DNA from: Cytophagales bacterium
Lineage (GTDB): Bacteria; Bacteroidota; Bacteroidia; Cytophagales; Bernardetiaceae
Reading direction: 5' to 3'
Length of the DNA: 62,140 bases
NCBI GenBank assembly: GCA_004293815.1
Contig: RDZD01000016.1
Coordinates: 1 to 62,140, forward strand
Made by a program: the position numbers and the translations under genes
The notes under the pieces: generated by a model
What the model saw: the letters and a program-made list of their open reading frames with translations, nothing else
Databases searched by the model: none
Told to the model about the DNA's origin: nothing
Part shown: positions 171 through 47,734 of the stretch, piece after piece
How the letters are laid out: every line of letters starts with the position of its first letter
Position numbering within the stretch: the first letter of the stretch is position 1

Positions 171-1007
171 TTACTGTTTTTCGCTACGAAGTTGCTCTAT
201 TTGCTCGGAGGTTAAACCTGTGTCTTCTGCGATTTCCTCATTTGTCAAGTTGCGTTTAATGAGTCTTTTAGCAATTTTAATTTTTTCTTGGTTTTTTCCC
301 TTGTTCTCTGCTTGATCTAGTTTAGCCCTTTCGTCTTCCTCTCGCATAAGAGCATAATCGTAAGCCTCCAACTCTTCGGGTGTCCAAGTGTGCTTATTAG
401 CCTCTTGGTAAGCACTTTTTAGTCCTTCGTCATCTACGTTTTCAGGAATAACATCAAGATTTTCAGCATTTTTGATGAAATACACCCACTTTTCTGTCAA
501 TGTTTCCAATTCGTGTAAATCCTTATTAAACTTAGGTAGCTCTATAAAGTTAAACTCTACATCTTCCAAAAGATGTTCGTGGGTTTCTACATCTCGAATT
601 TGATGGCGACTGATGTATTTTGAGTTGATCGAAAAACTATAATCCAAAATACCAATAAAAATGACAGGCTTTAATTGTCTATAAAAATCGCCTCTTTTAA
701 TTTGTTCGCTATATGATTTTGAAAAATAGAACAACACTCTTTTCGCAAAACCATCTAGCTCGCCAACTTGCATTTCTACGATATAGTTTCTGCCGATTTG
801 GTCGGTAGCCTTTACGTCAATGATAGTTACTTTTCCTCCTCGTAATTTGGGCAATTGGTAAGGGTTCATGATCTTAACCTCTACAATTTTTTGTTTGCCT
901 TTGAAAGCTAAAACAGCGTTGAGAAACGACACTAAAGTTTCTTTTCGGTTATCATTACCAAAAATTTTGCGAAAGGCTACATCATTTTTTACGTCTGCAA
1001 ACCCCAT
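171..1007 (-). CDS. Rpn/YhgA-like PD-(D/E)XK nuclease-family putative transposase (recombination-promoting nuclease family)
   Basis: The 278-aa ORF has the conserved N-terminal stretch of this family (MGFADVKNDVAFRKIFG...LNAVL) and the central IVEMQ / D-x-E-x-K-like core. The C-terminal tail matches the charged helical tail of TIGR01784-type proteins. These genes are multi-copy in many Bacteroidota. Confidence 0.7.
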   Translation of the reverse strand: MGFADVKNDVAFRKIFGNDNRKETLVSFLNAVLAFKGKQKIVEVKIMNPYQLPKLRGGKVTIIDVKATDQIGRNYIVEMQVGELDGFAKRVLFYFSKSYSEQIKRGDFYRQLKPVIFIGILDYSFSINSKYISRHQIRDVETHEHLLEDVEFNFIELPKFNKDLHELETLTEKWVYFIKNAENLDVIPENVDDEGLKSAYQEANKHTWTPEELEAYDYALMREEDERAKLDQAENKGKNQEKIKIAKRLIKRNLTNEEIAEDTGLTSEQIEQLRSEKQ

Positions 1008-3092: not shown

Positions 3093-3710
3093 CTAAGGCA
3101 CAGGATCGCCAAATTTATGGCTGAAGGATTTAGGATTGCCGCCATCAAAGTCCACAACTGTATAATTGATGCTTTCATCGGTCACACTAAGCTCCGAAAG
3201 ATAAGAACAGTTAGGCTCACCGCGTGCAGCAGAACCAGTGCCACCGCATACCTGCCCCAAAGATTCTAGCTTACCATTAGGCGACAGAATATGAAAAACC
3301 ATGTAGTCAAAATGGCCTTGCTCTATGGTAACATAGACTGTGTATTCCATACTCTGGGTGCAAGCTATTGCATACGTACTCACTTCGCCACCCACTTCTA
3401 AAAGGCGGCATTCTTCGGCTGTAAGTTCTATTTCGCCATAATCGCCTCCATCTGGATTTGCTTTTTTGACACGTTCCACAAATGCTTTATTTTCTAAATA
3501 AGGGTATCTGGTGAATAGTGCTTTAAGTTCTTCGCTTATTTGAGGTTGTAAGGCTGCTTCATGAGCACTAGTTGCGGCCTCTGTTTCTGCCGCAAGGTCT
3601 GCTTGCTGTGTGCTTGTGGAGTCTTTTACGGCAGTACTCCCGCCACCGCCACAAGAAAAAAGACCCAAAGTAAGGGCTAGAGAAATTATTTGTATGGTTT
3701 TTGAAAGCAT
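3093..3710 (-). CDS. hypothetical lipoprotein
   Basis: It has a signal peptide with the lipobox LGLFSCGGGG and a Gly/Ser/Thr/Ala-rich linker. No recognisable catalytic motifs are present. Confidence 0.55.
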   Translation of the reverse strand: MLSKTIQIISLALTLGLFSCGGGGSTAVKDSTSTQQADLAAETEAATSAHEAALQPQISEELKALFTRYPYLENKAFVERVKKANPDGGDYGEIELTAEECRLLEVGGEVSTYAIACTQSMEYTVYVTIEQGHFDYMVFHILSPNGKLESLGQVCGGTGSAARGEPNCSYLSELSVTDESINYTVVDFDGGNPKSFSHKFGDPVP

Positions 3711-3930
3711 ATTATTTGAAGAGTTAAAAAATTAGGAAATCAATACTCATAAGGCTCAGAACACAAAAAAACGAACTAATTAAGGCTAAAAGAAATGATT
3801 TAAAGCACAATATTCTAAATTTGTTGTTTGAAAATATATGAATGGTCTATTTTTCTTTGCATGTGGTATGTTAGGAAATAGCTTGGCATAGAAATCAGAA
3901 TATCATTAGTCAAAAAATATATCAAATTAC

Positions 3931-4338
3931 ATGAGCCTTTTTAAAAATAATTATGTGGAGATAGACACCAGCACTGAGCCACTTGTCTTGATAACTTACT
4001 CAAGTGCTGAACCTACTCTAGCTGAGTTTGATGCCTATCTAAGAGAAATTGAAATAATTTATGAGCGTGTGCCCTACTGTGCTTTTGTGCTAGATAGCAC
4101 GCGTGTTAAGTACTTGAGATCTGAATTACGCATAAAACAAGGCACTTGGATGAAAGAGAATGAAAAGCTCATAGGAGTCAAGCAAAAAGGTGCTGCCTTT
4201 GTTGTAAATGGTGTCATGGTGCAAATGTTGCTGCAAGGTATCATGTTGGTCAATCCTTTTCCTGCTCCATACAAGGTGTTCGCAAAATACGAAGAGGCTC
4301 TGCAATGGGCTACTAATCAACTCAAAATGCAAAAGTAA
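3931..4338 (+). CDS. hypothetical protein (135 aa), possibly STAS/SpoIIAA-like fold
   Basis: The ORF is clean with coding-like composition. The fold assignment is a weak guess from the alternating beta/alpha pattern and has no motif support. Confidence 0.4.
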   Translation: MSLFKNNYVEIDTSTEPLVLITYSSAEPTLAEFDAYLREIEIIYERVPYCAFVLDSTRVKYLRSELRIKQGTWMKENEKLIGVKQKGAAFVVNGVMVQMLLQGIMLVNPFPAPYKVFAKYEEALQWATNQLKMQK

Positions 4339-7152: not shown

Positions 7153-7887
7153 TTAGGCCGCTGTCTTGGGTGAACGATGGGCTATATAAAGCGAATACAA
7201 CAGCATCATAACAGAAACAAGGGCAATGCTAGTACCCCAAAACCAATAAGGCAACAAGAGCGCATTGGCTATAGCTCCTGTATCAGAAGCATACTGCGTG
7301 CCATCAACCACTGCATTATCTACAAAAAGATAGTCAAATTGTGTAAAAACAGCTATAGAAGCCTGAACACCAAGAAGACGTACCAAAAATTGTGAGGTGT
7401 TATGACCACCCTTTAAGGCCACACTCAATATAAGAACAGCCCAAAGCGGTATAAAGACAAACCCAAAAATATTTCTAACCCAAACAATCACGCTGAAAGC
7501 CATAAACAGACCCAAAATCCACAATGATGCAGTGGCTACACGGGGAGAACGGCTCAAAATAATCAACAAACTACCCGCCACTGCTGGTCCTAACAAGCCC
7601 CCTGCCGCTACAGCAGCTTCACCTAGAGGGCCAAAGAGCACATCTTTGCTGTGCTTAGCCACTCCTGAGCCATCGCTAAATATTTCTAGTTGGTGGAACG
7701 TCCCGCCAAATAGAATAGCTGTCAGACCATGACCCATTTCATGAAACCACGTACACAAAATGGTGAAAGGGTAAAGGACATAATTACCGTAAGGCACATA
7801 ATTTAAGGCAATTGTAAACAAAGCCATTAAAAAGAGCCAAATGAGCGAGCTCTTTTTTTCACTGTGACCATCTATGGTGGTGTTCAT
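7153..7887 (-). CDS. M50B-like membrane zinc metalloprotease family protein
   Basis: The HEMGH (HExxH) motif sits inside a polytopic membrane protein of about 244 aa, which is the architecture of Peptidase_M50B. Confidence 0.6.
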   Translation of the reverse strand: MNTTIDGHSEKKSSLIWLFLMALFTIALNYVPYGNYVLYPFTILCTWFHEMGHGLTAILFGGTFHQLEIFSDGSGVAKHSKDVLFGPLGEAAVAAGGLLGPAVAGSLLIILSRSPRVATASLWILGLFMAFSVIVWVRNIFGFVFIPLWAVLILSVALKGGHNTSQFLVRLLGVQASIAVFTQFDYLFVDNAVVDGTQYASDTGAIANALLLPYWFWGTSIALVSVMMLLYSLYIAHRSPKTAA

Positions 7888-7920
7888 TGTGTTTTTGAGT
7901 TTAAGGTGACGCTTTGTACT

Positions 7921-8964
7921 TTAGTCATTTTGATTCTCTTCGCGAGAACGAGGTTTTTGATGATGCTCTTTGTGGTTTTGCTCTTCTTCTGTGTTCCTCT
8001 CATAAGCTTCAATAACCTGTCTAACAAGATAATGCCTAACCACGTCCTTGCCATCTAAGTATACAAAACCTATATCCTTGATTTTTTTAAGAATATGAAC
8101 GGCATCAACCAAACCTGAGCGTTGCTTGCTGGGAAGGTCTATCTGGCTCACATCACCAGTAATAATCATTTTTGAATTTTGTCCCATGCGAGTCAGACAC
8201 ATTTTCATTTGCATAGACGTTGTGTTTTGAGCCTCGTCAAGCAAAATAAAGGCGTTAGAGAGCGTTCTGCCGCGCATAAAAGCTATGGGCGCAATCTCAA
8301 TGATATTTTCTTCAAGGTAATGATTCAGTTTTTCGGAAGGAATCATTTCCTCAAATGCGTCATAAATAGGGCGCAAATAGGGATCTATTTTTTCGCGCAT
8401 ATCACCAGGCAGAAAGCCCAAACTTTCACCAGCTTCTACTGCTGGGCGAGTGATAACAATTTTGCGCACCAATTTATTTTTGAGCGCACGAACAGCTAAA
8501 GCCACAGCTACATAGGTTTTGCCTGTCCCAGCAGGGCCTAGAGCAAATACAATGTCTTTTTCGTTCGATGCTTTGACGAGTGCTTGTTGGTTAGTTGTTT
8601 TGGCTTTTATAGGTAAGCCCTTCACCCCAAAAATAATGGTGTCGTCCTTGTCTTTGCGTAGCAATGAAGCAGAGTCATCGTTCAAACACAAGCGCACATC
8701 AGCCACGTCTACCTTTCCAAACTGGTGATAGTGCTCTAGAAGTTGGTTAATGATTTCATTGATTTTGACAATTTCAGGGCTACTACCTTGAATACGAATT
8801 TCGTTACCGCGTGCCAAGATGCGACTTTCTGGAAAAGCCAGTCTAATTTCACGAAGATTGGCATCTTCCGCCCCAAAAAAATCAGGCAGAGCCACATTTT
8901 CTAATTGTATGATTTTTTCTACCAAAACAACTTTATTTTTATTGTTGATAACATGATAAAACAC
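7921..8964 (-). CDS. PhoH-family ATPase (PhoH-like/YbeZ type)
   Basis: The Walker A motif GPAGTGKTY is followed by LLDEAQN and a TGD...Q.D motif, all characteristic of PhoH family proteins. A KH-like domain lies N-terminal to the ATPase. Confidence 0.9.
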   Translation of the reverse strand: MFYHVINNKNKVVLVEKIIQLENVALPDFFGAEDANLREIRLAFPESRILARGNEIRIQGSSPEIVKINEIINQLLEHYHQFGKVDVADVRLCLNDDSASLLRKDKDDTIIFGVKGLPIKAKTTNQQALVKASNEKDIVFALGPAGTGKTYVAVALAVRALKNKLVRKIVITRPAVEAGESLGFLPGDMREKIDPYLRPIYDAFEEMIPSEKLNHYLEENIIEIAPIAFMRGRTLSNAFILLDEAQNTTSMQMKMCLTRMGQNSKMIITGDVSQIDLPSKQRSGLVDAVHILKKIKDIGFVYLDGKDVVRHYLVRQVIEAYERNTEEEQNHKEHHQKPRSREENQND

Positions 8965-9028
8965 CCGCAGGTATCACAAATATATTAAACGATGGTCAAA
9001 AAACAAAGTTTCCTTGTCAAACATTTTT

Positions 9029-9844
9029 CTATATTTTGAGAGAGCGGTATGCAAAAATATTGAGCTGCAAATCCACTTCAGAGCCTAGTTCTAACTTGTC
9101 CAAATAAGGCTGAGATTGGTAAACTCCAGTTCGCTCCATGTAGTAACGAAAGCCAGCTTGCGTTATAATTTCCAATATTTCATGGAGAGTTTGGTCTTGA
9201 TTTGCGTAGGAATGGTACTCTACAAAAAGGTGCTTAACGCGGTGTAAATCTTGGGAAATATCATTTAGGACTTCCGTTTCAGCTCCTTCTATATCCAGCT
9301 TCAAAAAATCTACAGGTTCTTGTAAGTAAGGTCTTAAGCTAGTGGTTTCTACGTTCACAAATTCAGAGTGCTGATCTTCTAAATCTGCTATAGCACTGGC
9401 ATCATATAAATCAGCATTAAATCGTACTATCTTTTTGAATGACCAAAGAGCTTTAGGAATCAATAAAATGTCTTTTTCTTGACTTCTTGAAATATTTTTA
9501 GATAATATTTGGAATGTTTTTGGATTTGGTTCAAAAGCAATAATACTTGATTTTGGATAAAGCCATTTAAAATAAAGAACACTTAAACCAATATTAGATC
9601 CGCAATCAATAATTTTAATTTTTTTAGTATCTGATTTAAAAAAATAAATTTGTTTATTAAATATTTCATCAAATTGAAATAAAAAATTGGATTTATTATT
9701 CAAATAAAATTGTTTTTTATTCAAATAAATAAACCCAATTTCTTTAAAATCACTCCAAAATAATTTTAGCCATGAAAGCAAACTCAAATTTGAGTAGTTT
9801 TTAATAAAACTCTTGGCGAGAAGACGGCTTTCAAAGCTTAACAT
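9029..9844 (-). CDS. FkbM-family methyltransferase
   Basis: The motifs IDCGSNIGLS, FEPNP and LKLDIEGAE match the SAM-binding and FkbM signatures. The 5' half of the gene is extremely AT-rich. Confidence 0.8.
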   Translation of the reverse strand: MLSFESRLLAKSFIKNYSNLSLLSWLKLFWSDFKEIGFIYLNKKQFYLNNKSNFLFQFDEIFNKQIYFFKSDTKKIKIIDCGSNIGLSVLYFKWLYPKSSIIAFEPNPKTFQILSKNISRSQEKDILLIPKALWSFKKIVRFNADLYDASAIADLEDQHSEFVNVETTSLRPYLQEPVDFLKLDIEGAETEVLNDISQDLHRVKHLFVEYHSYANQDQTLHEILEIITQAGFRYYMERTGVYQSQPYLDKLELGSEVDLQLNIFAYRSLKI

Positions 9845-10246
9845 TTATTCCCAAATAATCACAAAACCAAGATTGCTAGCCAAAAATCCTTTTTCTTGCT
9901 TAAAGCTTATGGAATTTTTTGTATAGCTCATTAAAATGGGGTCGTTGTCTGGTTCAGCGCATTTCAGTGACTCAGCAGGCTTATTCTTCCAGCCCTTAGT
10001 GTTGAAATACTTTGTCATGTCATGTACCCTATTAGGCTCACCCTCAACAATTTCTTCTACTTTTTCGGCATCAATCAGAAACCTACGCTCTGTATCTTGA
10101 AGAGCAAGTACCCAAACGCCCCCTTTCTTACAGAATGTGCCGAGAGCTTGTTTCACATCAGGTACTGTTATCTGAATGGTCTTATTTTCAGCGTTGCTGG
10201 GTAAGGCCATCACAAAGAGATAAATAAGAATATAAACGATATCCAC
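9845..10246 (-). CDS. hypothetical secreted/membrane-anchored protein (133 aa)
   Basis: It has a hydrophobic N-terminus. Its stop codon directly abuts the start codon of the FkbM gene, which suggests translational coupling. Confidence 0.45.
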   Translation of the reverse strand: MDIVYILIYLFVMALPSNAENKTIQITVPDVKQALGTFCKKGGVWVLALQDTERRFLIDAEKVEEIVEGEPNRVHDMTKYFNTKGWKNKPAESLKCAEPDNDPILMSYTKNSISFKQEKGFLASNLGFVIIWE

Positions 10247-10272
10247 AGGATTATTTTTTTGTTGAAGATTTT

Positions 10273-11355
10273 CTAAAATACCTCCTCAAAATTCAAACCA
10301 AATTTTCTACCAGCTTCTTTGAGCGAGCCTATCACAGGGGCAATGAGCGGGATACCTTTCTGCATTCTTTCTGCTTCTGCCAAACGTTCGGGGTCGCCTG
10401 GTATCAACACTGGCTCATCTGGGTTGATTGGTTTAGCATTCCGAAAACGTTGTATCCAAATGTCCATGCTTTTTTTGAAGTCTTCGGCTGGCCTAAAAGC
10501 ATCTATACGCCATGCGCCTACAAAGTGACCAAGTCCCTCACCTACAGGATCTTGAGGCAGCGGCAAAAAGCTCACAAAGGGCGGTACCCAAGGGCCAAAA
10601 CCTGCACCAGAAAGTACGCCGCTCATAATATCAACGATGCTGCCCAAACAATAGCCTTTGTAACTGCTCCGCTGCTCATTGCTGCCTAGCGGTAATAATG
10701 CACCGCCTTTACGCAGAACAGTAGCGTCTGTACTAGCCTGACCACTAGCATCTTGCACCCACCCTTCGGGGGCATCTTGCTGCTTTCGTTCCAGAATCTC
10801 TAACTTTCCATTAGAAACAGTTGTGGTGGCCAAATCAGCTACAAAAGCGGGTTCGGTGTGTGCTGGAATAGCCAAAGCGATAGGGTTTGTGCCCAACATG
10901 CGCTCAGTGGTACGGGTGGGAGCTACCAGCGGACTGGCATTGGTCAGCGCGAAGCCTATCATGTCGTGCTCAAGTGCCATCATGGCATGATAGCCTGCAA
11001 TACCAAAGTGGTTTGAATTTTTGATAGCCACCCAGCCAGAGCCTACCATCTTAGCCTTCTCAATAGCCACTTTCATAGCATAAGGCGCAGAAACTAAACC
11101 CAATGCAGCATCAGCGTTAATCGTGGCTGTAGACGGTGTTTCGTGTACAATGTGCATTTGAGGTTGGGCGTTTACACGTCCCACCTCCCAAAGACGTACA
11201 TACCCCAACAGGCGCGCCAAGCCATGCGAGTCAATACCTCTCAAATCAGCGGCTAAGAGCACTTTTGAGGAGAGCTCTGCATCTGCTAAAGAGCAGCCCA
11301 TACCCTCAAAAACACGGCGTGTGAACTCAAAAAGCCCTTGATAAGAATAAGTCAT
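10273..11355 (-). CDS. Ldh_2-family (malate/L-lactate/sulfolactate-type) NAD(P)H-dependent oxidoreductase
   Basis: GIDSHGLARL, SNHFGIAGYH and a conserved HxxP... region match Ldh family 2 over the whole ~360-aa length. Confidence 0.85.
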   Translation of the reverse strand: MTYSYQGLFEFTRRVFEGMGCSLADAELSSKVLLAADLRGIDSHGLARLLGYVRLWEVGRVNAQPQMHIVHETPSTATINADAALGLVSAPYAMKVAIEKAKMVGSGWVAIKNSNHFGIAGYHAMMALEHDMIGFALTNASPLVAPTRTTERMLGTNPIALAIPAHTEPAFVADLATTTVSNGKLEILERKQQDAPEGWVQDASGQASTDATVLRKGGALLPLGSNEQRSSYKGYCLGSIVDIMSGVLSGAGFGPWVPPFVSFLPLPQDPVGEGLGHFVGAWRIDAFRPAEDFKKSMDIWIQRFRNAKPINPDEPVLIPGDPERLAEAERMQKGIPLIAPVIGSLKEAGRKFGLNFEEVF

Positions 11356-11378
11356 GGTATAAAAGCTATGTAAAATAC

Positions 11379-11891
11379 TTACTCTACATCTTTTGGAAAA
11401 TACTTTTTAGGAAACTCAGCAAACAAAAATTGGCTGTTACGGCTGCTGATCTCAGCCCAGGCGGTGGTGTCAAAACTAATAGCATAAATGCAACAAGTGG
11501 GCATATTGTCTATATACGCACTTATACAGAGCGAGTTGGCAAGAATCGTTATAGCTGGATTATGACCTACAAGCAAGAGGGAATCGTCCTCGTCGTTCAG
11601 ATTTTTGATGAGATCGTAGAGATAGTCTGCATCTTCGTTGTAAATATGCAAATCCCAGATAATTTTTTCTAGTGGATAAGATAAATGAGCCGCCATAACT
11701 TCTGCTGTATTTTTGGTTCGCAGAGCGGGGCTAGACACAATACAATCTATTTTATCCACTTTTTTGGCCAACAACTCGCTCATAAAGGGCAAATCTCTCT
11801 TACCGCGCTTGTTGAGTGGGCGTTCAAAGTCATCTAATTCTATATCGCGCCAGCTAGATTTGGCATGGCGCAAGAGATAAACAGTTTTCAT
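11379..11891 (-). CDS. histidine phosphatase superfamily protein (SixA-like phosphohistidine phosphatase)
   Basis: The RHAKS motif lies at the N-terminus (catalytic RHG-type histidine). The ~160-aa length and the ...GHNP motif match the SixA branch. Confidence 0.8.
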   Translation of the reverse strand: MKTVYLLRHAKSSWRDIELDDFERPLNKRGKRDLPFMSELLAKKVDKIDCIVSSPALRTKNTAEVMAAHLSYPLEKIIWDLHIYNEDADYLYDLIKNLNDEDDSLLLVGHNPAITILANSLCISAYIDNMPTCCIYAISFDTTAWAEISSRNSQFLFAEFPKKYFPKDVE

Positions 11892-11982
11892 AATAGCATT
11901 CTTTGCATTGATGCGCCAAATTTAGCTGAAATATATGTAGCTAAGTGCTACTTTAGATAAATTTAACATGAGTAAAGAAATC

Positions 11983-13041
11983 TTAATGCAAGCGCACGCG
12001 TGGATCCAGCCAAGCGTAGAGAATGTCTACAAGAATGTTGATAAGCACAAACATCATAGCCACTATCACGGTGGCACCCATAATGATAGGGAAGTCTAGT
12101 TTATTTACTGCGCTAATAGTGGTGTAGCCTAAACCTTTCCAGCTAAAGATATATTCAACAAAAAATGCACCAGCCAACATGATAGCCAACCAAGATGAAA
12201 TGGCAGTTACCACGGGGTTAAGGGCATTTTTGAGGGCATGTTTGAATACAATTTGATAAGAAGAAAGCCCCTTAGCTTTGGCAGTACGGATATAATCTTG
12301 TCCAAAAACTTCCAACATAGAGTTGCGCATAAGCTGGGCTATGATAGCCAAAGGCTTTAGACCTAGTGTAATAGCAGGAAGAATAAGATTTTTGGGTGTC
12401 AGCACACGTTCACCATAATCGTTGATTTCCCACAGGCTTCCTGTCATTTCCAAGCCTGTATAATCGCTTAAATGATACCCAAAAAGCATAGCCAGCACAA
12501 TCCCTATCACAAATGAGGGTGCAGAAATTCCAAAAACAGAAGACGAGATTAACAAATGATCCCACCAAGAACCAGGCTTGAGCGAGGCCAGAATACCAAA
12601 CAAAATGCCCCAAAACGCGGCAAACCCCATGGCACCAATCGCTAACCAAAAAGTACCATCAAGATTTTCCATAATTACTTCACTCACACGCCTATTGGTG
12701 AGATATGAGCGGCGAAAATATGGACTTTTAAGTGCCAGTACTTTAGAACCGCCAATAGGTATGGCCACCCAGAATTCATACTCTGTTTTGTTTTCGGGGG
12801 TGTCGGCATGTACAGAAATGATGCTCAAGTCATTTAGATACATGGCTAATTGATGAGGTAGGGGTTTATCTAAGCCATAATAACGATTAATAAAATTAAG
12901 CGTTTCTTGGTCTGCGCGTCCGTGCGTAATCATCTTGGCAGGATCGCCAGGAAGCGCGTGAAATATAAAGAACACCACGACAATAACCCCAAAAACAACC
13001 AAACCTCCATAAAGAAGCCGCTGCAAAATAAACTTGAGCAT
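11983..13041 (-). CDS. peptide/nickel-type ABC transporter permease (DppB/OppB-like)
   Basis: It has six predicted TM helices with an EAA-like loop and the BPD_transp_1 signature (AKAKGLSSYQIVFKHALKNAL). Confidence 0.85.
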   Translation of the reverse strand: MLKFILQRLLYGGLVVFGVIVVVFFIFHALPGDPAKMITHGRADQETLNFINRYYGLDKPLPHQLAMYLNDLSIISVHADTPENKTEYEFWVAIPIGGSKVLALKSPYFRRSYLTNRRVSEVIMENLDGTFWLAIGAMGFAAFWGILFGILASLKPGSWWDHLLISSSVFGISAPSFVIGIVLAMLFGYHLSDYTGLEMTGSLWEINDYGERVLTPKNLILPAITLGLKPLAIIAQLMRNSMLEVFGQDYIRTAKAKGLSSYQIVFKHALKNALNPVVTAISSWLAIMLAGAFFVEYIFSWKGLGYTTISAVNKLDFPIIMGATVIVAMMFVLINILVDILYAWLDPRVRLH

Positions 13042-13679
13042 ATGAGAAACTCTTGGCCGAATTAAAATAAAAACTGTATGAGTGTTGCAAATTTAAGTAA
13101 GTGCTTACAGAAACACAAATTTTGATAGGTTTTATTATCTGCACCAATAAAAAAGCAGCTTGCAGCTCAATCACCTTTATATAGGATTCGAAATCAACAG
13201 CAGCAGTACAGAATGCTTGTGCATGGTTCTGGAATGCGTGTTTTGAAGAATAGAGTTTTGCTTATTTTGGGATACACTGTAGACACAATAAGTGCTTTTA
13301 TTAGCCTCTATAACACTTTGGTATGAAGTCATTAATTTTTTTTTGATTTAGTCTTTGTTTCTAAGCGTTTATGATATCTAAAATTTGTATAAAATAGCCT
13401 TTTAGCTTATATTTGCCTGCCCAACAATGATTCTAACTAAAGGTATTTAAATTTTGCCAAAATGTGTTTTTATACAGAGTAGATTTTAATTTATTGACAT
13501 TCAAATTCTTGTGCATTGCTTTTGTTTGAACTAAAAAAATCAGACTAAGACCATAAATTTTTAGAACAATTTTTAAACCTATTTAGTTCTAAACACTCTT
13601 AGGCTCTGATTTTGAGTAGCTACTACTATGATTTATTGCTTTTCTATAATATTCTATTTAACAGTCTAATTTCATTTCT

Positions 13680-16600
13680 TTGTCGCTCAACACTGCCATG
13701 AATTCAAAGATTTACTCACCCCACACTCAAAAAATCACCTATCTGCTTTTTTATACCCTCCTTTTGGGTTTGTTTAGCCTATTGGGCTTATCAAAAGTAC
13801 AAGCCCAGTGCAGTAAAACCACAGAGGGTACTGAATTCTGGCTCGGTTTTGCAGATGCTCGCGACGGTACGGACGAGGAGTTAAGCATTACCGTAACCTC
13901 ACGCGTGGGTGCAACGGTGAGCGTGTTTGGTGGTGCAAGCAGTACTTTACTGGCTACTTTCATTGTGCCTGCGGGAGGCTCAGTTAAAACCGTTGTACCA
14001 GAGCTGTGGGAAAATGAGACCTCTGAAATCATCGAAGACAAAGGTATTCGTGTGGAATGCACTGCAGCCTGCAATGTTTATGCCTTGAGCTATCAACGCA
14101 ACTCGGCAGATGCGACTTTGATTTACCCAACCACCACACTAGGCGACAAATATTACATCATGTCCTATGCACAGGCTACTAACCTAACCAACACACAGGT
14201 GCGTAATAGCGAGTTTGTGATTGTAGCCACCCAAGACGCTACAAGTATTACCATAATACCCAATAAAATTACAACTGCGCTAAAGCCTGCCAATGTGCCC
14301 TTTAGTATCACACTCAACAAAGGCCAAAGTTATCAAGTAAAATCAGGTGAGTTTAGCGGTGCTGGCACGGCTCTGCCTGCTGGACAAGGCGACCTTACTG
14401 GCTCAAAAGTAACTTCTTCTAAACCTATTGCTGTTTTTGGAGCCAATATCGCCACCGTAGTGCCCAATATCAATACTTGTTGCTGGGATCATCTCTACGA
14501 GCAAATGCCACCTACAGCTGTTTGGGGCAAAGAGTACATTACTGTACCTTACAAAACCCGCCTCTGGGATGTTTTTAGAGTGCTCGCACGAATAGACGGT
14601 ACGGTTGTGAGCATAGACGGTGCACCAGTGGCCACGCTCAACGAAGGACAGTTTTATGAGTTCAATACTACGGGCAGTAATTTCCCCAAAGTGATTACAG
14701 GAACTAATCCTATTATGGTTATGCATTTCAGCACCTCTACCAATGCGGATGCTGTGAGCGAGGCAGATCCTTTTATGATTAATCTCAGCCCTACCGAACA
14801 GTCTGTAGAAGACATCACTTTTGTGGCTTTTACCTCAACCGTTATAACAGCTTACTACCTAAATATTTTGACAGAAACCAGCAATGTGCCCAACATGCGT
14901 CTGGATGGTGTGCTGATTGCACCTACAAGCTTTACGGCGGTTCCAGGCACAGTCTTTTCACGTGCACAGCTCAACTTAACTCCTGGTACGCACCGCTTAA
15001 CTAACAGTGGCAGTGGCAGAGGCTTTACTGCAAATATTTATGGCTACGGCCCTTTTGAATCTTACGGCTATGCAGCAGGCGTAAATCTCACTCCACAACT
15101 CAACTTCCTTTTTGGGTCGTCTAGCGTGGATAATGATGCGGAGGATTTCTGTGACAGCGAAGGCGCGCAAACCTTTGTAGCTGAATACAGTGTCCCAGGC
15201 GCAACCTTAGAGTATAAATGGAAGAATCTTACCACAGGAGCTATTGTGAGTACTACTGATGCCATGACTGCTAATGTCTTTTCTAGTACCACTGACTATG
15301 AGCTAACTATAGATGACATAGGCGGATCTTGTTCTATTAAAGATACACTGAGGGTAATTTTCTATAAAGTACCCACAGCAGAAGTCAAACACGCAGATTC
15401 TACCCGAAATACCTATAATTTTTGTTTGGCAGACGGAGAACAAAGCTTTTCAGGTACACACCCTGACAACGCGGGGCTTGACATAGACTATTTCTGGATT
15501 TCTATGGATTCTGGCGATACGCTTGGCACTGCCTCAAGCCAGACCTTGCCAGTACAGTTAGGCTCATTCCAATACATGCTCCACACTTACAACAGCTCTG
15601 ACACCTCAAAAGTTTGCTTTGATGCCGATACCATTACTTTGGTTTACAACACGGGTTTACCTGTTGATATCAAGCATTTGGGTATTGTCAAAGATACAGT
15701 GGTGTTTTGTGATGATGATGGTGCGCAGACTTTGGATGCCTCGCACCCCAGCCATACGAGTGTGTCATATCAGTGGCGCGACCTTACGCGAGACAACGAT
15801 TTGGGAACGGCCTCTACCCAAACAGCCAATATCTTTGGTCAGAACACGCTGTACGAAGTAGAAGTAACCAACTTGCTCACAGGCTGTACCAGCAAAGATA
15901 GCATTCTGGTTGTATTTTTTGCAGCCAATGTGAGAAGTGGCGGTACTGTAGTTTCTGATACCTTCCGCTTTTGCGACGATGATGGCCCCCGAGTACTCGA
16001 TGCCTTTGATCCACTAAACGGCCCTACAGTAGAATATCAATGGAAGGATTTAGGTACAGGTACAGTAGTTAGCTCCACATCGGTTCTAAATGCTGCCAAT
16101 TTTTCAGATACTACAGTTTATGAAATCTTCTTACGCGACGTGGTAAGTACTTGCGAAGCGCGAGACACTATTATGGTTATTTTTCGACCTACACCAACGG
16201 CCATTGTGAAGCTAAATGGTGTATCAATGTCATCATACATTCTCTGCAATGGTTCGGGGTCTGTAAGGCTTAATGGATTTGCAGCCACTAACCAACATGT
16301 GCGTTATCAGTGGCGACGTAACGGCACTCTTATAAGTACTGACACAGCCATTACCGTTACAGATGTTTCATTTGGAACATTTACCTACCTGCTCACAACA
16401 ACCGATACAGTGTCTAACTGTGTGGCCACAGACGAGATTGTTATAACTGTTTACCCACGCCTTTCTGGCCGCACTACGGGTTCAGCTAATATTTGTGCCG
16501 GAAAAACCACCACTGTAACTTTTACTTTGGCAGGTAGTTTTCCGATGAACATGACCTATTCGGTAAAAGATATTACAACAGGAGCGGTTATTTCCACAAC

Positions 16601-19600
16601 CACCATTAGCGGCATCACAGCAAGTCCAGTGACTCTTACGGTGGGCAGTGCAGGCATTTATCAAATTAGTGCACTATCTAGTGTGGTTGGGTGTACAGCA
16701 TCGGCCTCTGCGCTCACGGACAGTGCTAGAATTCAAGTTATTCCTGTGCCCAATGTGGTGCTAACCTCTAATGACTTTGATAACAAAATTTGTAGGGATC
16801 AAGGTATCAAATTTACAGCCACAGGAGCAGCTTTTTACCGATTCTTCATCAATGGGGTTTTGATGCAAGAAGGCACCTCGGCCAACTACACGCCTCCCGT
16901 AGGCATACTCAACACGGGAGACTTAGTTTGGGCTACAGGAGTTAATCCCCCTACCGACTGTGGAGATACGAGCAATGTTATTACCATGACTGTAAACCGC
17001 ATTCCTGTTACGTCTATTGGTGTTTCACCTCGTGAACTCTGTCCAGGCGGTGACTCTCTCAAGCTCACCTCCACGCTGGTAGGAGCTACTGGCGCATTCA
17101 CTTATGATTGGCGCAAAATTGTTGGCAGTACAGCTGTGCCGGTGGGTACAGGCAAAGCCACTTTGTCGGTGATAGATACTGGACGATATTTTTTGATTAT
17201 TACAGAAAACTTAATAACGGGCTGCCAATATAGAACAGATACCATCAAAGTCAACTTCAAAGCCCCACCTGTGCTCAACGTGCGCGATACAGTAGTGTGT
17301 ATGGATAACCGTCCAGCTATTTTGGTGGCGCAAGACTTGACGCACGGCTCTGCTATCACCTACCAATGGTTTAACACCGCCAACCCAACAGCAGTGATTG
17401 GCACAGCTGGAACTTTGGCCGTAAATTCAGCAGGTTTGTATAGGGTCATTATACGCGACACACTCACGGGCTGCACAAGAACCGACCTTGCTCGTGTTGA
17501 CTTTAACCCAAATCCTGACTTTGAAATTAAAGGGCACGATAAACCGCTTTGTGAAGGGCGTGACACACTTACTTTAGATGCTTCTAACCTAGACAGCATG
17601 CAAATTGTGTGGGTAGGTGATGGACTCATTCAACTTGGAACTGATCAAAGAAGCCGAATTGTTACCAAAAGCGGTGTGGTTACGGTCATTGTTACAGACA
17701 CCTCAAAATCTACGCTCTGCCGTACTATCAAGTCCATTGACGTGATTATCAATGACAAACCCATTATCAATCCGAAATTGAAAGACTATGTAGTTTGTGA
17801 AGATACCACCTTGCGTATAGAAGCATTACATCCTACTCACGCCTCAAATGCAACCTATCAATGGCGCAATCTGACCAAAGGAACTGTAGCAGGCACAGAA
17901 TCTGCACTTGTTCTAAGCTTTGAGGAGGATTATAGTGAAAATATCTACGAAATACTTGTTACACACCCGAACTCTGGCTGTACAAGCCGCGATACAACAT
18001 CGATTAGATTCCAGAAAAAATCTAATGCTGAAATCAGTATTGAAAGAGGCCAATTGAAGCTTTGCGTGGGTGAAAGCGTCGTTTTGAGAGCTTCTGGAGG
18101 AACAGGCTATCTCTGGAACACAGGCGAAACGACCGAACTCATCAGTTTTAAGGCCATACAAAAGGGCTTTTTCCCAATTGTTTTGACGGGTGATTTTAAT
18201 ACCACTTGTGGACAAAGCAAAGACACTGTTGAAATTGAGGTCAGAGACCAACCCTTGGCTGCTATTCCCGATACACTCATAACAGTTTGTCAAACAACGC
18301 CTTTAGTCATAGATGCGGCTCTGCCTGAACATGATTTCTACACTCTTTACACTTGGACCAATCTGTCTAATGGCGAAACTCTGAGCAATCAATCCAAACT
18401 GGTTTTAACTTTCGACAGTTTGACAAGTCCAACCTTTGATCCTTTTCAAGTGGTTCTTCGCGTGCAAGATAGCTTGACGAACTGTTTTAGTCAGGATACT
18501 GTTGTGGTTAATTTTGAGCGAGGCAGTAAGGTTCAAATAGACAGCAATGCTGTACAAGAAGTTTGTCTAGGCGACAGTATCACACTTTCTGCCAGCGGCG
18601 CGGCGCGATATGTTTGGAATACTGGCGATACCACAGCCACCATCAAAGTTAAAGCAGAAGTGGCAGGCTTTATGACCTTTATCGTCAAAGCCGATGCCGC
18701 TAATCTATGTGCGAGTACTTCTGACACCTTGTTTGTTCGGGTGCGTCCGCTCCCGCGTATACAGGCTCATACACAAGATACCGTTAAAATCTGTGCTGAT
18801 GATTCTTTGACACTTTACCCCTCTGGTGGATTGTCCTACGAATGGCTTAACGATCCGCTTCTACGCGACACCATTACGGTAAGTCCCCAAAAGCCAACCA
18901 TGTACTACACCCTTGGTACTGATGCTTTTGGCTGTAAAAACTTGGACTCGGTATTTGTAGACGTATCGCCCACGATAGATTTAGGTCCTGACTTGATAGC
19001 TTGTCTGGGCGACACCTTAATCATAGGCCAAGTGAGCAGCGATAGCACCGCTACCTACAGCTGGTCGCCAAGTGGCCAACAGACACCCATTATTCAGGTA
19101 TGGAAGTCTGGCACTTATACCGTAAAGGTTCAAACCGCAGAATGCAGCTACAAGCGCAGTGTAAAGGTCAACTTTAAAGAAGAGCCTAAAATCCTGCTGG
19201 TACAAGACACTGTGTTTTGTTTTGACCCATGGCCTAACAGGGGCGTTGTGGAAAAAGAGCTGGGCAGTGCTTTGTTAAACCCTGATACTTCTGCTCGCTA
19301 CGTGTACGTTTGGACGGATTCTACTGGTGAGATTGTGGGCACAGAACCCGTTCTAAAAGTGAAGCAAGGCGGCAAGTACTACTTGAAAGTTGCAGCTCTT
19401 TATAGCGTTACTTGCGAAACCAATAGGGACGTGCAAATTGATGATGCTTGTCCGTCTAGAATCTTTGTACCAAATGCCTTCACGCCCAATAACGATGGGT
19501 TGAACGACTATTTTCAAGTATTTGGTGGTAACATCAAGTTCTTTGAGATGATGATATTCAACCGTTGGGGCGAAGTGGTCTACTTGAAAAGTACACAAGA

Positions 19601-19754
19601 CTTTGGCAGTATTCGAGGCGATGACTTCTGGAACGGTCAGTATAAAGGCAAAGATGTGATGGAAGGCAATTATGTGTATGTCATTAAGTACAACTCAGAA
19701 GACGATCTTTCTAAAATAGAAAAAGTGCAAGGCAGCTTTACACTTCTGCGCTAA
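13680..19754 (+). CDS. giant secreted surface protein/adhesin (2024 aa) with many Ig-like repeats and a T9SS type-B (gliding motility-associated) C-terminal sorting domain
   Basis: A signal peptide is followed by an N-terminal module with a CCWDHLYEQMPP motif that looks like an IgGFc-binding-protein-like domain. About 12-13 divergent ~95-aa repeats follow, each with a conserved Cys pair, for example FCDDDGAQTL...TGCTSKDSILVVF. The last ~90 aa (IFVPNAFTPNNDGLNDYFQVFG...FNRWGEVVY...GNYVYVIKY...GSFTLLR) match the TIGR04131-type CTD. Confidence 0.9.
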   Translation: MSLNTAMNSKIYSPHTQKITYLLFYTLLLGLFSLLGLSKVQAQCSKTTEGTEFWLGFADARDGTDEELSITVTSRVGATVSVFGGASSTLLATFIVPAGGSVKTVVPELWENETSEIIEDKGIRVECTAACNVYALSYQRNSADATLIYPTTTLGDKYYIMSYAQATNLTNTQVRNSEFVIVATQDATSITIIPNKITTALKPANVPFSITLNKGQSYQVKSGEFSGAGTALPAGQGDLTGSKVTSSKPIAVFGANIATVVPNINTCCWDHLYEQMPPTAVWGKEYITVPYKTRLWDVFRVLARIDGTVVSIDGAPVATLNEGQFYEFNTTGSNFPKVITGTNPIMVMHFSTSTNADAVSEADPFMINLSPTEQSVEDITFVAFTSTVITAYYLNILTETSNVPNMRLDGVLIAPTSFTAVPGTVFSRAQLNLTPGTHRLTNSGSGRGFTANIYGYGPFESYGYAAGVNLTPQLNFLFGSSSVDNDAEDFCDSEGAQTFVAEYSVPGATLEYKWKNLTTGAIVSTTDAMTANVFSSTTDYELTIDDIGGSCSIKDTLRVIFYKVPTAEVKHADSTRNTYNFCLADGEQSFSGTHPDNAGLDIDYFWISMDSGDTLGTASSQTLPVQLGSFQYMLHTYNSSDTSKVCFDADTITLVYNTGLPVDIKHLGIVKDTVVFCDDDGAQTLDASHPSHTSVSYQWRDLTRDNDLGTASTQTANIFGQNTLYEVEVTNLLTGCTSKDSILVVFFAANVRSGGTVVSDTFRFCDDDGPRVLDAFDPLNGPTVEYQWKDLGTGTVVSSTSVLNAANFSDTTVYEIFLRDVVSTCEARDTIMVIFRPTPTAIVKLNGVSMSSYILCNGSGSVRLNGFAATNQHVRYQWRRNGTLISTDTAITVTDVSFGTFTYLLTTTDTVSNCVATDEIVITVYPRLSGRTTGSANICAGKTTTVTFTLAGSFPMNMTYSVKDITTGAVISTTTISGITASPVTLTVGSAGIYQISALSSVVGCTASASALTDSARIQVIPVPNVVLTSNDFDNKICRDQGIKFTATGAAFYRFFINGVLMQEGTSANYTPPVGILNTGDLVWATGVNPPTDCGDTSNVITMTVNRIPVTSIGVSPRELCPGGDSLKLTSTLVGATGAFTYDWRKIVGSTAVPVGTGKATLSVIDTGRYFLIITENLITGCQYRTDTIKVNFKAPPVLNVRDTVVCMDNRPAILVAQDLTHGSAITYQWFNTANPTAVIGTAGTLAVNSAGLYRVIIRDTLTGCTRTDLARVDFNPNPDFEIKGHDKPLCEGRDTLTLDASNLDSMQIVWVGDGLIQLGTDQRSRIVTKSGVVTVIVTDTSKSTLCRTIKSIDVIINDKPIINPKLKDYVVCEDTTLRIEALHPTHASNATYQWRNLTKGTVAGTESALVLSFEEDYSENIYEILVTHPNSGCTSRDTTSIRFQKKSNAEISIERGQLKLCVGESVVLRASGGTGYLWNTGETTELISFKAIQKGFFPIVLTGDFNTTCGQSKDTVEIEVRDQPLAAIPDTLITVCQTTPLVIDAALPEHDFYTLYTWTNLSNGETLSNQSKLVLTFDSLTSPTFDPFQVVLRVQDSLTNCFSQDTVVVNFERGSKVQIDSNAVQEVCLGDSITLSASGAARYVWNTGDTTATIKVKAEVAGFMTFIVKADAANLCASTSDTLFVRVRPLPRIQAHTQDTVKICADDSLTLYPSGGLSYEWLNDPLLRDTITVSPQKPTMYYTLGTDAFGCKNLDSVFVDVSPTIDLGPDLIACLGDTLIIGQVSSDSTATYSWSPSGQQTPIIQVWKSGTYTVKVQTAECSYKRSVKVNFKEEPKILLVQDTVFCFDPWPNRGVVEKELGSALLNPDTSARYVYVWTDSTGEIVGTEPVLKVKQGGKYYLKVAALYSVTCETNRDVQIDDACPSRIFVPNAFTPNNDGLNDYFQVFGGNIKFFEMMIFNRWGEVVYLKSTQDFGSIRGDDFWNGQYKGKDVMEGNYVYVIKYNSEDDLSKIEKVQGSFTLLR

Positions 19755-44914: not shown

Positions 44915-45315
44915 AAACTATACATTTTTTGTTTAGGACAAGAGTAAAAATTTTTGAATCACCAAGAAATTGCCCAAAAACACTCTGTCAGGTTAGTTGT
45001 AGGGTTAAAAAAATCTGCATCAAACATAATGCTTTATTTATTGCAAAGCGTTTTTGAACAACTTTTTTTTTGGTAAAATCCTCTTTTTACCAACATTTAT
45101 TTTGCAATCGTTGCACTCAGCAACTAAAATCTCAGTATAATTTTGTATTAGTTCTCAAATTTTATTTAATTTACCCATTAACTGAGTGCAACTCTCTTGT
45201 TGTGTTTTTTGTCTTCATACCAAAATTGATTGCTCAATTTTTCGGAAAATATTTTACCACTCAGGCACTTACATACCATATTATTTTTGTCCTTATCTGT
45301 TTAAAACGACCCAAC

Positions 45316-45852
45316 ATGTTCAAATCATTCAGAATACCGACTGGACTCCTGCTTTTAATGCTAGTTTTTTCCACGTTTTGCTGTTCTCAAGTTGAACCAA
45401 ACGTATTTTCGGCTTGTTATAGGCCTGTTTACATGAAACTTGAGGAAGTAAAAACTATTCGTATGGAAGCACCCAAAGCGATGCTTTCTGCTGATAAGAT
45501 TTACTACAAAGACAACTACATATTCATCTGTGAAAGAAGCAAAGGAATTCATGTTTTGGATAACAAAGACCCTAAAAACCCTGTTCAAGTTTGCTTTTTG
45601 AGGATTCCTGGCAGTCAAGACGTGGCTATAAAAGGCAATATTTTGTATGCAGATAATTACAAAGATCTCGTATCCATAGATATCAGTAATATCAAGGAAC
45701 CTAAAGTACTCAGCAGAACGGAGAATGTATTCAATGTACCACAGTACCCTCCGCACGGCAATGTAAAATTTGAGTGCCCTAATCCCCAAAAAGGAATACT
45801 TGTAGGTTGGGAAGAAATCCCTTTAAACAGCAAAGTGGATTGTTTCCGTTAA
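45316..45852 (+). CDS. LVIVD-repeat lipoprotein (2 repeats)
   Basis: A signal peptide with Cys (FSTFCCSQ) is followed by two LVIVD-type repeats (YIFICERSKGIHVLDNKDPKNP, ILYADNYKDLVSIDISNIKEPK). Confidence 0.6.
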   Translation: MFKSFRIPTGLLLLMLVFSTFCCSQVEPNVFSACYRPVYMKLEEVKTIRMEAPKAMLSADKIYYKDNYIFICERSKGIHVLDNKDPKNPVQVCFLRIPGSQDVAIKGNILYADNYKDLVSIDISNIKEPKVLSRTENVFNVPQYPPHGNVKFECPNPQKGILVGWEEIPLNSKVDCFR

Positions 45853-45908
45853 AAAAGTCTTGAAGTCAATTTTTAAAAAATTTATACTCAATAAATCTCT
45901 AAAAAAAC

Positions 45909-46697
45909 ATGAACTCATTCATAAAAAACATCAGAGCAACGGTCATGTTGGCCTTTCTACTAGGCTCATTGGCAGCTTGCGATTCGCAAGGAGAAGGAGA
46001 CTACATGAGCCCACCTGAGCGAAGCGACAACACAGGAGAAGCTGGCTCTATGGCGCGTTTTGGCCTTTCTGGCAACCAGCTTTATGTAGTTGGCAATGAC
46101 AATCTTAGATATTTTGATATCAGTGATCCCCGAAAACCTGTTTTTCAAAATACTATCAATCTTCCTGATGGTGTAGAAACTATTTTTCCTTATGGTAATC
46201 ATTTATTTCTGGGTACTATGAATGGGGTTATTATCATGAATATATCCAACCCTTTGGCTCCCATTATATCAAGCACATATAGCCATGTCACGTCTTGTGA
46301 CCCTGTGGTGGTGCAAAATAACTATGCCTATGTAACCATGCGCAACGGTACTGCTTGTAACCGAGGTATCAATCGCTTAGAGGTGTTAGATGTCGGCGCG
46401 CCTTGGGAACCATCTATGATAAATAGCATGGCGATGATTAACCCACACGGTTTGGGTGTTGAGGGGTCTCAACTCTTTGTTTGCGAGGGTGCTTCAGGTC
46501 TAAAGGCATTTGATATATCTACTCCTTACAAGCCTAAGATGGTTCAATTATTAAATGGCTTTGATGCCTTTGACTTGATTGTGGACAATGGTCTTTTGAT
46601 GGTTATAGGCAAAACAGGGCTGATGCAGTTTCAATACGACACAAGCCCTCAAGCACCCAATATGCGTTTGGTAAGCCGTATCAACATTGGTTCTTAA
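45909..46697 (+). CDS. LVIVD-repeat lipoprotein (about 4 repeats)
   Basis: A lipobox (LGSLAACD) is followed by four LVIVD-type repeats (LYVVGNDNLRYFDISDPRKP, LFLGTMNGVIIMNISNPLAP, AYVTMRNG...LEVLDVGAPWEP, LFVCEGASGLKAFDISTPYKP). Confidence 0.65.
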   Translation: MNSFIKNIRATVMLAFLLGSLAACDSQGEGDYMSPPERSDNTGEAGSMARFGLSGNQLYVVGNDNLRYFDISDPRKPVFQNTINLPDGVETIFPYGNHLFLGTMNGVIIMNISNPLAPIISSTYSHVTSCDPVVVQNNYAYVTMRNGTACNRGINRLEVLDVGAPWEPSMINSMAMINPHGLGVEGSQLFVCEGASGLKAFDISTPYKPKMVQLLNGFDAFDLIVDNGLLMVIGKTGLMQFQYDTSPQAPNMRLVSRINIGS

Positions 46698-46716
46698 AAA
46701 TAATTTCCTAGATTTT

Positions 46717-47439
46717 ATGAAAAAAATTGCTAATATTTTAACGTGTATTGCTCTGGTTTGTGGGTTTGTTTACGAGAATGCACAGGCCAGTGTGGGTGAT
46801 TCTACAGCCAAAGACAGCACTGGCGTTGCAAAAATAGTGTCAGGAAAGAACCTGCGAGCCATTCTATTTGTGTCTCCTATGGCTCATTTAAATTCTCGAA
46901 GCCCTGCAGTATTGCAGATAGGTGTGGAAAGACCTATAAGCAAATACGGTTCTTTGCTTTTTGAGGCGGGTTTTCTGCGGGGCAATAGCCGCATGCGCCG
47001 TTATGATACACATGTTAAGTATGGTGCTAGGCTCAGGGCGGAGTCACGCACATATATGCAGCCTATTCACGTCAAACAGCGCAGATGTAGATCTTTTTTA
47101 GGTTTAGACATGACTTTCAAGCACATGCGTCTTAATGACTGGGACGAAATTGTACCGGTAGAATCTGACCCTGACAGACTTGGCCATGAATACTTAATGA
47201 CCGTCTGGACGAGAGACTATGACACTCTTTTAGCTTTAGCATTTAAGCAAGGTGTACAGTATCAGTTCGATACGCAATTGCCTATTTTCCGAAATTTGGC
47301 GGTTGATTTTGAATGGGGGTTGGGAGCAGCCTATTTCTTTAATGGCTCAAAGCGAGGTTTTGGGCTTTTTAGAGATGCTGAGAATAAATCAGTACTTTAC
47401 GGCTCACTTGAGTTCAGAATAGGTTATATCCTTCGGTAG
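46717..47439 (+). CDS. hypothetical secreted protein, possible small outer-membrane beta-barrel
   Basis: A signal peptide is followed by alternating hydrophobic strands. The C-terminus ends in an aromatic-rich strand (LEFRIGYILR). The OMP assignment is tentative. Confidence 0.35.
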   Translation: MKKIANILTCIALVCGFVYENAQASVGDSTAKDSTGVAKIVSGKNLRAILFVSPMAHLNSRSPAVLQIGVERPISKYGSLLFEAGFLRGNSRMRRYDTHVKYGARLRAESRTYMQPIHVKQRRCRSFLGLDMTFKHMRLNDWDEIVPVESDPDRLGHEYLMTVWTRDYDTLLALAFKQGVQYQFDTQLPIFRNLAVDFEWGLGAAYFFNGSKRGFGLFRDAENKSVLYGSLEFRIGYILR

Positions 47440-47734
47440 TAGAGTGTTGTAGCAATCAAGGAGTCTATCCTACACCCAATGAGTCTGCTGATACACCTCA
47501 ATAACTGGTGGATTTTGGCAATCTTTCTATTGCAGCAGACTCTTGGTGTGAGAAGAGTAAAAAAATAATGCTTCGCTAATTTCTTTTTTGATATTCGGCA
47601 TCAATATTGCCCTTATTGATGCAAGAAATCCCATGTCCGCTAAGCTACTCACAATAACACATTTTACCAAAAATAAAAACCAAACAATGTTTAAGAACAG
47701 CAGCATATCTTATACATTTCAACAAATCAAAACC

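Follow-up and report, generated by a model that had tools for sequence, protein, structure and literature searches.

An inherited, apparently maintained AT-rich trough inside an FkbM-family methyltransferase gene of a lineage-restricted two-gene module in Cytophagales

We describe a two-gene module carried by a 62,140-nucleotide (nt) stretch of DNA, the window, from a Cytophagales bacterium (contig RDZD01000016.1). It consists of an orphan small open reading frame (ORF; 9845–10246, minus strand, 133 amino acids [aa], GTG start) and, downstream of it on the same strand, the gene of an intact FkbM-family methyltransferase (9029–9844, 271 aa). Codons ~12–127 of the latter form an AT-rich trough, 9463–9809, with a guanine-plus-cytosine (GC) content of 19.3%. 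The module appears to be restricted to one lineage, in which a single orthologue carries the same anomaly amid other neighbours; the trough has been inherited and apparently maintained. We tentatively favour selection on base composition as its cause.

The AT-rich trough

The mean GC content of the window is 41.8%, lower than the approximately 45% given in a preliminary description of this DNA. Its most AT-rich segments of 150, 300 and 360 nt all lie inside the methyltransferase gene (12.7%, 18.7% and 19.7% GC, respectively), and the next-lowest segments of these sizes, all of them elsewhere, stand at 22%, 24.7% and 24.7%. The edges of the trough were set by a maximum-likelihood three-segment partition, which gave a GC content of 0.193 for 9463–9809 and of 0.353 and 0.406 for its flanks. 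The AT-rich 5' part noted in the preliminary description is therefore real, as a minimum of the window in GC content. The break had also been called sharp. The 5' edge of the trough, however, is reached only ~35 nt into the gene, and on its 3' side the GC content in the window climbs as a gradient (0.25, 0.33, 0.36 and 0.43 per 120 nt) with no knife-edge break.

The anomaly extends to all three codon positions. GC at the first, second and third positions (GC1, GC2 and GC3) is 0.25, 0.25 and 0.16 over nt 1–390 of the gene and 0.54, 0.27 and 0.34 over the remainder. Within the trough the lowest GC3 of any 100-codon window is 0.09, while 40 other genes average 0.419 (sd 0.052) and never fall below 0.26 (n=1248 100-codon windows). 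The GC3 of the small ORF is normal (0.40). Pooled short intergenic DNA contains 33.4% GC, so that in AT-richness the trough exceeds even non-coding DNA. The bases of the trough are balanced between the strands (A.38, T.40, G.11, C.11), and strand-biased deamination was ruled out on the grounds that A≈T and G≈C on the coding strand.

A misassembly or chimeric contig at 9480–9850 had been raised as one explanation, and nothing beyond the unusual composition speaks for it. Contigs from three independent runs (SRR7244345, SRR12360564 and SRR12360546) match the window over the whole region at 100%, 99.96% and 100% identity, respectively, which rules the artefact out; the frame is moreover intact with the family motifs in place, and the same pattern is present in an independently assembled genome, described below. 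We attach practically no credence to this explanation.

The orthologous module

A single homologue can be aligned from end to end, the orthologue P0002 (53% identical), encoded by the Cytophagales metagenome-assembled genome GCA_013299045. At this locus (L004) a 135-aa homologue of the small ORF lies 3 nt upstream of the methyltransferase gene (TAA GCT ATG). The two small ORFs are 36% identical (E 3e-27) and have in common an MDI... start, a hydrophobic leader and the C-terminal end, the start codon of the orthologue being ATG. The orthologous module has neighbours fully unlike those in the window: on one side the gene of a 1072-aa Por_Secre_tail protein, on the other that of a GT4 glycosyltransferase, which is convergent.

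The orthologue has its own trough, delimited by segmentation to L004:10005–10546 (gene nt 5–546, codons 2–182; 22.1% GC), which contains the lowest 300-nt window of the 20.8-kb locus. Along this module the GC content runs from 44.6% in the small ORF through ~21–22% in the first 540 nt of the methyltransferase gene to ~41–43% in its last 260 nt, with 41% in the 3' flank. The 3' edge is sharp here, rising from 0.21 to 0.43 between adjacent 90-nt blocks, and the troughs end at unlike positions, codon ~127 in the window and codon ~182 in the orthologue.

The two genomes are related, as judged by a Y_Y_Y regulator fragment (72% identical) and by Ldh_2 (80% at the protein level). The Ldh_2 orthologue has entirely different neighbours in the related genome, and so has a 67% identical homologue. 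Further members of the subclade were found neither by a word-indexed protein search, nor by a HMMER search with the small ORF, nor in 185,579 species genomes. A motif scan of Joint Genome Institute (JGI) metagenomes returned five matches, two of which were ordinary family members and three due to chance (contigs of 18–25% GC).

The preliminary description had allowed that the bias might be merely lineage-typical, with homologues of the same composition throughout. Such a composition is indeed found in the sole true orthologue, but this does not amount to a lineage-typical bias. In a scan of the same 185,579 genomes the difference in GC between the 5' and 3' parts was 0.000 ± 0.037 in 78 homologues; the P0002 locus (-0.176) was the sole outlier, and the value for the window is about -0.18. 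Three further homologues, picked for an N-terminal excess of FYMINK residues, the amino acids with AT-rich codons, also have no trough. With 78 + 3 homologues lacking it, a family-wide property was ruled out.

These comparisons bear directly on the proposal that the N-terminal segment is a mosaic or lateral acquisition, or a low-complexity insertion, specific to the source genome. The compositional contrast itself is what such an event would leave behind. When the protein is split at residue 135, however, P0002 is the top match for both parts, and the two halves are about equally diverged at the nucleotide level: residues 1–130 are 51% identical to P0002 in aa and 63.8% in nt, and residues 181–271 are 62% and 64.8% identical, respectively. 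The trough-encoded segment is no insertion relative to the family, being homologous throughout the alignment. The orthologue, moreover, carries its trough in a different genome and among different genes. On this ground and on that of the two halves, a recent mosaic was rejected. Low complexity or disorder is ruled out by an AlphaFold (AF2) model in which residues 1–130 are folded into helices and strands at a predicted local distance difference test score (pLDDT) of 72–95, and this region holds 13 invariant residues. A recent origin of either kind is highly improbable in our judgement, and we are confident that the trough is neither a recent mosaic, nor a low-complexity region, nor an assembly artefact. 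It predates the divergence of both gene copies, whether these were separated by the split of the genomes or by an older transfer; a recombination origin, if any, predates the split of the two modules.

Homopolymer A/T runs of 6–8 nt occur in both troughs (A6, T6, T7 and A7 in the window; A8, A7 and three T6 in the orthologue), and a run of AAT AAA AAA (N-K-K) at aligned codons 42–44 is common to the two. These runs are potential slippage sites; nothing points to phase variation.

The methyltransferase

The gene unambiguously specifies a genuine FkbM-family class I S-adenosylmethionine (SAM)-dependent methyltransferase, as predicted by its sequence motifs and modelled fold. It matches PF05050 [67.9 bits against a cut-off of 22.7, E 1.6e-18, residues 80–234] and TIGR01444 [91.5 bits against a cut-off of 37.7, E 6.5e-26]. 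About 1973 FkbM homologues were found, typically 41–50% identical and 265–280 aa in length. All 34 invariant columns of a 20-sequence family alignment are kept in the window protein, and 13 of the 34 fall in the AT-rich part: E60, Y67, F69, D80-G82-N84-G86-L87, K93, F104-E105-P106 and N117. The SAM-binding motif I, IIDCGSNIG (residues 78–86), does not vary in the family alignment and lies within the trough-encoded part, and KLDIEGAE and FVEYHS are also kept. The AF2 model, which was built on the family alignment, has a pLDDT of 84 and a predicted template modelling score (pTM) of 0.85, and shows residues 1–130 as two helices, a β-hairpin, a third helix and the first two Rossmann β-α units. Among solved folds, Foldseek ranks 2py6 ("Methyltransferase FkbM") first and further class I SAM methyltransferases after it; 2py6 is also matched when the Protein Data Bank is searched with a profile (E 1.7e-5).

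The protein belongs with a Bacteroidota/cyanobacterial subfamily of ~265–280 aa, with which it shares its length, including the N-terminal extension, its motifs and the class I fold. The PRY and D-SAS motifs of the N-terminal region and the SEGADGGR loop are lost in the window protein, and the near-invariant PRY motif is lost in the subclade of two orthologues. Among 119 homologues, none has an N-terminal part richer in FYMINK residues, or poorer in the GARP residues with their GC-rich codons, than the two orthologues. The window gene is furthermore set apart from the family by its pairing with an orphan ORF and, together with its orthologue, by a GC content of ~20% over the first 125–180 codons. 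No homologue of the small ORF was found beside any other FkbM homologue.

Characterised FkbM members methylate the hydroxyl of a sugar, a macrolide or a Nod factor. The loci of the relatives that were sampled contain GT2, GT1 and GT11 glycosyltransferases, a Wzx-type flippase, a DegT aminotransferase and epimerases. An O-methyltransferase acting on sugars or glycans is thus the most likely identity of the enzyme, and the reasonable default, because its close relatives sit in surface-polysaccharide loci and the orthologue adjoins a GT4 gene. Such a location is typical of the family and not defining; no polysaccharide locus surrounds the window gene, whose module is flanked by Ldh_2 and PhoH.

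The 3' end of the orthologous methyltransferase gene overlaps the convergent GT4 gene by 11 nt (L004:10794–10804). An NTP_transferase (sugar-nucleotide) gene lies ~8 kb off. Apart from these two genes, nothing related to glycans was seen around members of the subclade.

Maintenance of the trough

Synonymous sites between the two genomes are close to saturation. At conserved residues of Ldh_2 the fourfold sites are 34.8% identical (n=112), which corresponds to about 1.5 synonymous substitutions per synonymous site (dS). For the methyltransferase, where the chance expectation was taken from regional codon usage, identical codons at conserved residues number 41 against 38.2 expected in the 5' part (P=0.26) and 29 against 25.6 expected in the 3' part. 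Because synonymous divergence is near saturation, a passive relic should have largely ameliorated. A rough two-state calculation (~0.75 substitutions per site and lineage, ~80% of them changing GC) puts the surviving part of the initial deficit at ~30% and GC3 at a value of at least 0.30, even from a start at zero. The GC3 observed over 130 codons is 0.16 and 0.19 in the two genes, with 0.09 in the core, and thus falls below the estimate.

The codons at which the encoded amino acids differ, and which have been substituted since the split, tell the same story. The 63 such codons of the 5' part have a GC content of 0.26 and 0.24 in the two genes, and the 34 of the 3' part one of 0.39 and 0.46. 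AT pressure therefore kept acting in both lineages, and within the gene it did so only on the trough part.

This has to be set against an ancient partial transfer, by which the 5' part would have been replaced in the common ancestor from a very AT-rich donor, leaving the trough as an incompletely ameliorated relic. The sharp 3' edge in the orthologue is what one would expect of such an exchange, and there is precedent in the persistently low-GC blocks of polysaccharide genes, which are usually attributed to low-GC donors (PMC3715488). The family also resides in horizontally mobile glycan loci, and its genes are on average 2.7 GC points below their flanks. Yet both halves of the gene share their nearest relative and their divergence, the troughs end at different codons in the two genes, and AT-rich donor-like sequence was not found in 5.8 billion protein clusters or in JGI metagenome contigs. 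The saturation of synonymous sites, with GC3 at 0.09–0.19 where the two-state model calls for 0.30 or more, and the continued AT-richness of the post-split codons are also at odds with a relic. We consider an ancient transfer improbable as the explanation of the trough.

A second alternative dispenses with both donor and function: under relaxed constraint and AT-biased mutation the 5' part would have drifted to an AT-rich equilibrium in both lineages, freed from the force that holds GC near 42% in other genes, be it codon selection or GC-biased recombination and repair. The loss of the PRY motif from the subclade fits this explanation, as does the low identity (32%) of residues 1–45 between the orthologues. 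FYMINK-rich and GARP-poor N-termini are what mutation pressure would give, the base composition is strand-symmetric, sequence-specific constraint was not detected, and accessory genes tend in general to be AT-richer (PMC5303225). The deepest part of the trough (codons 40–120), however, includes the best-conserved segment, with 71% identity over residues 45–90, as well as the SAM motif. GC3 is normal (0.34–0.40) in the adjoining ORF and in the 3' half of what is one and the same low-expression gene, and the trough lies far below intergenic DNA in GC. Drift of this kind is unlikely, in our view, although it deserves serious consideration. Selection on composition is favoured over drift to a neutral equilibrium because the GC content (0.19) and GC3 (0.09–0.16) of the trough are well below the intergenic value of 0.334.

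Search for an element and proposed role

Our preferred reading, to which we can commit ourselves only with reserve, is that the AT bias is kept by selection on composition, most plausibly as a way of tuning the expression of the methyltransferase against that of the upstream ORF. Selection would act on base composition itself, at the level of DNA or RNA and with no specific motif, and its effect would be to restrain or tune the methyltransferase relative to the small ORF. One candidate route would be an AU-rich, unstructured and nuclease-sensitive segment of the mRNA; another would be a stretch of AT-rich DNA to which silencing or nucleoid proteins are drawn, or at which the polymerase pauses. 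That the invariant residues encoded by the trough are all still in place, in a stretch modelled as folded, points to retained function and counts in favour of this reading.

Several results weigh against this reading. No Rfam model matches the trough with an E value better than 0.2, inverted repeats or an invertible-promoter architecture of any significance are absent from it, and promoter- and terminator-like motifs occur at the frequency expected from shuffling. No 10–11-bp AA/TT periodicity of the kind produced by helical phasing of A-tracts is common to the orthologues, and there is no overall excess of synonymous conservation. Two specific mechanisms fare badly. A brake by rare codons is unlikely in a 42%-GC genome (GC3 0.42) in which A/T-ending codons are the majority. 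As to an easing of initiation or re-initiation, or a ramp, the requirement for low structure at the start in Bacteroidetes covers only about -20 to +20 (PMC6847099); the trough, at 350–540 nt, is 10–20 times longer than the relevant region and in the window begins 35 nt after the ATG, and because of this length and position the explanation does not fit. The amelioration estimate is moreover rough, intergenic DNA serves only imperfectly as a neutral reference, and the ends of the trough are unlike in the two genes. Lastly, with only two orthologues among about 15 billion proteins, "conserved" rests on n=2.

The core of the trough is a stretch of 45 nt (9644–9688, minus strand; codons 53–67, encoding NFLFQFDEIFNKQIY), of which 44 nt are identical to the orthologue in the codon alignment. 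Here 14 of the 15 codons are identical where 10.7 would be expected from trough codon usage (P≈0.03, only a weak flag as the core was chosen post hoc). The peptide NFLFQFDEIFNKQIY is the family's most conserved N-terminal motif. The identity of the core could reflect this conserved motif together with an extreme AT codon bias, or it could reflect a short element at the nucleotide level.

A bolder version of selection on composition, which we hold to be doubtful, is that the trough is a functional compositional domain within coding sequence, 350–540 nt long, selected in both lineages and acting by composition alone. It might, for example, be a platform for a silencing or nucleoid protein of Bacteroidota, or an AU-rich determinant of decay or pausing.

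The small ORF

Neither the small ORF of the window nor that of the orthologue matches any Pfam model, even at E ≤ 10, and that of the window has no NCBIfam family either. When 1.84 billion representative proteins were searched exhaustively with HMMER, the only credible relative was the small ORF of the orthologue. The same search returned two giant repeat proteins, P0123 and P0124, at E values of about 5e-4 to 7e-4. The former carries PepSY_like repeats according to Pfam, and its match was judged compositional from one inspected segment. The latter is a 4630-aa CHU_C/type IX secretion system (T9SS) protein whose residues ~3190–4110 show ~30% identity to the small ORF over ~85 aa; the six matching stretches are near-identical copies of one Ig_7 (CHU_C-associated immunoglobulin-like) repeat, which inflates the significance. 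Kinship of the small ORF with an Ig_7 adhesin-repeat domain is an unconfirmed lead. The AF2 model of the small ORF, built on the single sequence, was unusable (pLDDT 38).

The N-terminal hydrophobic stretch of the window ORF, MDIVYILIYLFVMALPSNA, includes a hydrophobic h-region kept in both small ORFs (IVYILIYLFVMALP and ILPALVFLIVSFLP). On inspection of the sequences it is followed by the motifs SNA|E and QSA|H; the n-region is M-D and has no positive charge. One gene caller begins the small ORF at Met13 (P0121), which removes the leader. Export of the small protein is accordingly uncertain.

Junction and neighbourhood of the module

On the minus strand the junction of the two genes (9842–9847) reads ...GAA TAA ATG TTA, so that the stop codon of the small ORF (9845–9847) directly abuts the start codon of the methyltransferase gene (9842–9844) with a spacer of 0 nt. 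Here the preliminary description was accurate, as it was in its assignment of the gene to the FkbM methyltransferases and in its statement that no glycan or lipid context is present: among ORFs of at least 150 aa up to 52 kb, a scan that left out four ORFs beyond 52 kb, there is no gene for a glycosyltransferase, flippase, polymerase or sugar-nucleotide enzyme.

The abutting TAA|ATG, the 3-nt spacer of the orthologue and the preserved order and adjacency of the genes recall translationally coupled operon pairs of other bacteria. The comparison differs in that the rules of re-initiation are poorly known in Bacteroidota, which initiate without Shine-Dalgarno pairing (PMC6847099). The kept adjacency of stop and start fits co-translation of the small ORF and the methyltransferase. 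Because order and abutting stop and start are kept in two unrelated neighbourhoods, they indicate that the putative small protein and the enzyme are inherited and probably expressed as a unit.

The module is located between Ldh_2 and PhoH, amid unrelated housekeeping genes. It is part of an array of seven co-directional genes (7153–13041, minus strand) with gaps of 0–91 nt, which comprises an ABC permease, His_Phos_1, Ldh_2, the small ORF, FkbM, PhoH and an M50B peptidase, of unrelated functions. With 26 nt upstream of it the module has no obvious promoter gap of its own and appears to ride in this long operon-like array; the orthologous module is preceded by an AT-rich gap of 114 nt.

Some other features of the window may be recorded. 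A gene for a PD-(D/E)XK nuclease-family transposase (171–1007, minus strand; PDDEXK_2, E 2e-55; GC 36%) lies ~8 kb from the module, and no link between this mobile-element-type gene and the module was seen. A 638-nt AT-rich intergenic region (13042–13679) has the second-lowest GC content of the window (24.7% over 300 nt); after it comes the gene of a 2024-aa T9SS cargo protein with IgGFc_binding, Ig_7 and CHU_C domains (13680–19754, plus strand). Finally, five co-directional ORFs occupy 45070–49454 on the plus strand (45070–45852, 45909–46697, 46687–47439, 47588–48616 and 48777–49454). Four of the five have no Pfam match at E ≤ 1e-6 and the second has LVIVD repeats; the GC content is 35% in the first and 18% in the 56-nt spacer that follows it (45853–45908).

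Significance

Taken as a whole, the module pairs an orphan 133-aa protein with an intact FkbM methyltransferase and carries an AT anomaly that is inherited and apparently maintained within a restricted lineage. The enzyme itself is ordinary, and the module is a modest curiosity that rests on two orthologues. It does illustrate that a striking intragenic GC break need not mean a mosaic gene or a misassembly, since one orthologue was sufficient to overturn that reading.

The nearest parallel is found in the O-antigen genes of Salmonella and E. coli (wzx, wzy and glycosyltransferase genes), whose GC content is also far below that of the genome, persists across divergent alleles and has block-like boundaries. 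Their persistently low GC content, long noted in capsule genes as well, in the words of the authors "needs explanation" (PMC3715488). There, whole genes or multi-gene blocks within a hypervariable cluster are of low GC; here, in contrast, the boundary falls inside one gene, the trough has normal-GC sequence of its own module on either side (the partner ORF and the 3' half), and no glycan cluster surrounds it. The module thus offers a small and unusually clean case for the old question of what keeps some glycan-type genes far more AT-rich than the genomes that carry them (PMC3715488), and the trough is a compact test object for telling mutation bias from selection on composition. Were the trough indeed a compositional domain, it would set the ratio at which the methyltransferase and its orphan partner are expressed, and selection on composition would have been strong enough to reshape the amino-acid content of the SAM-binding half of the enzyme.

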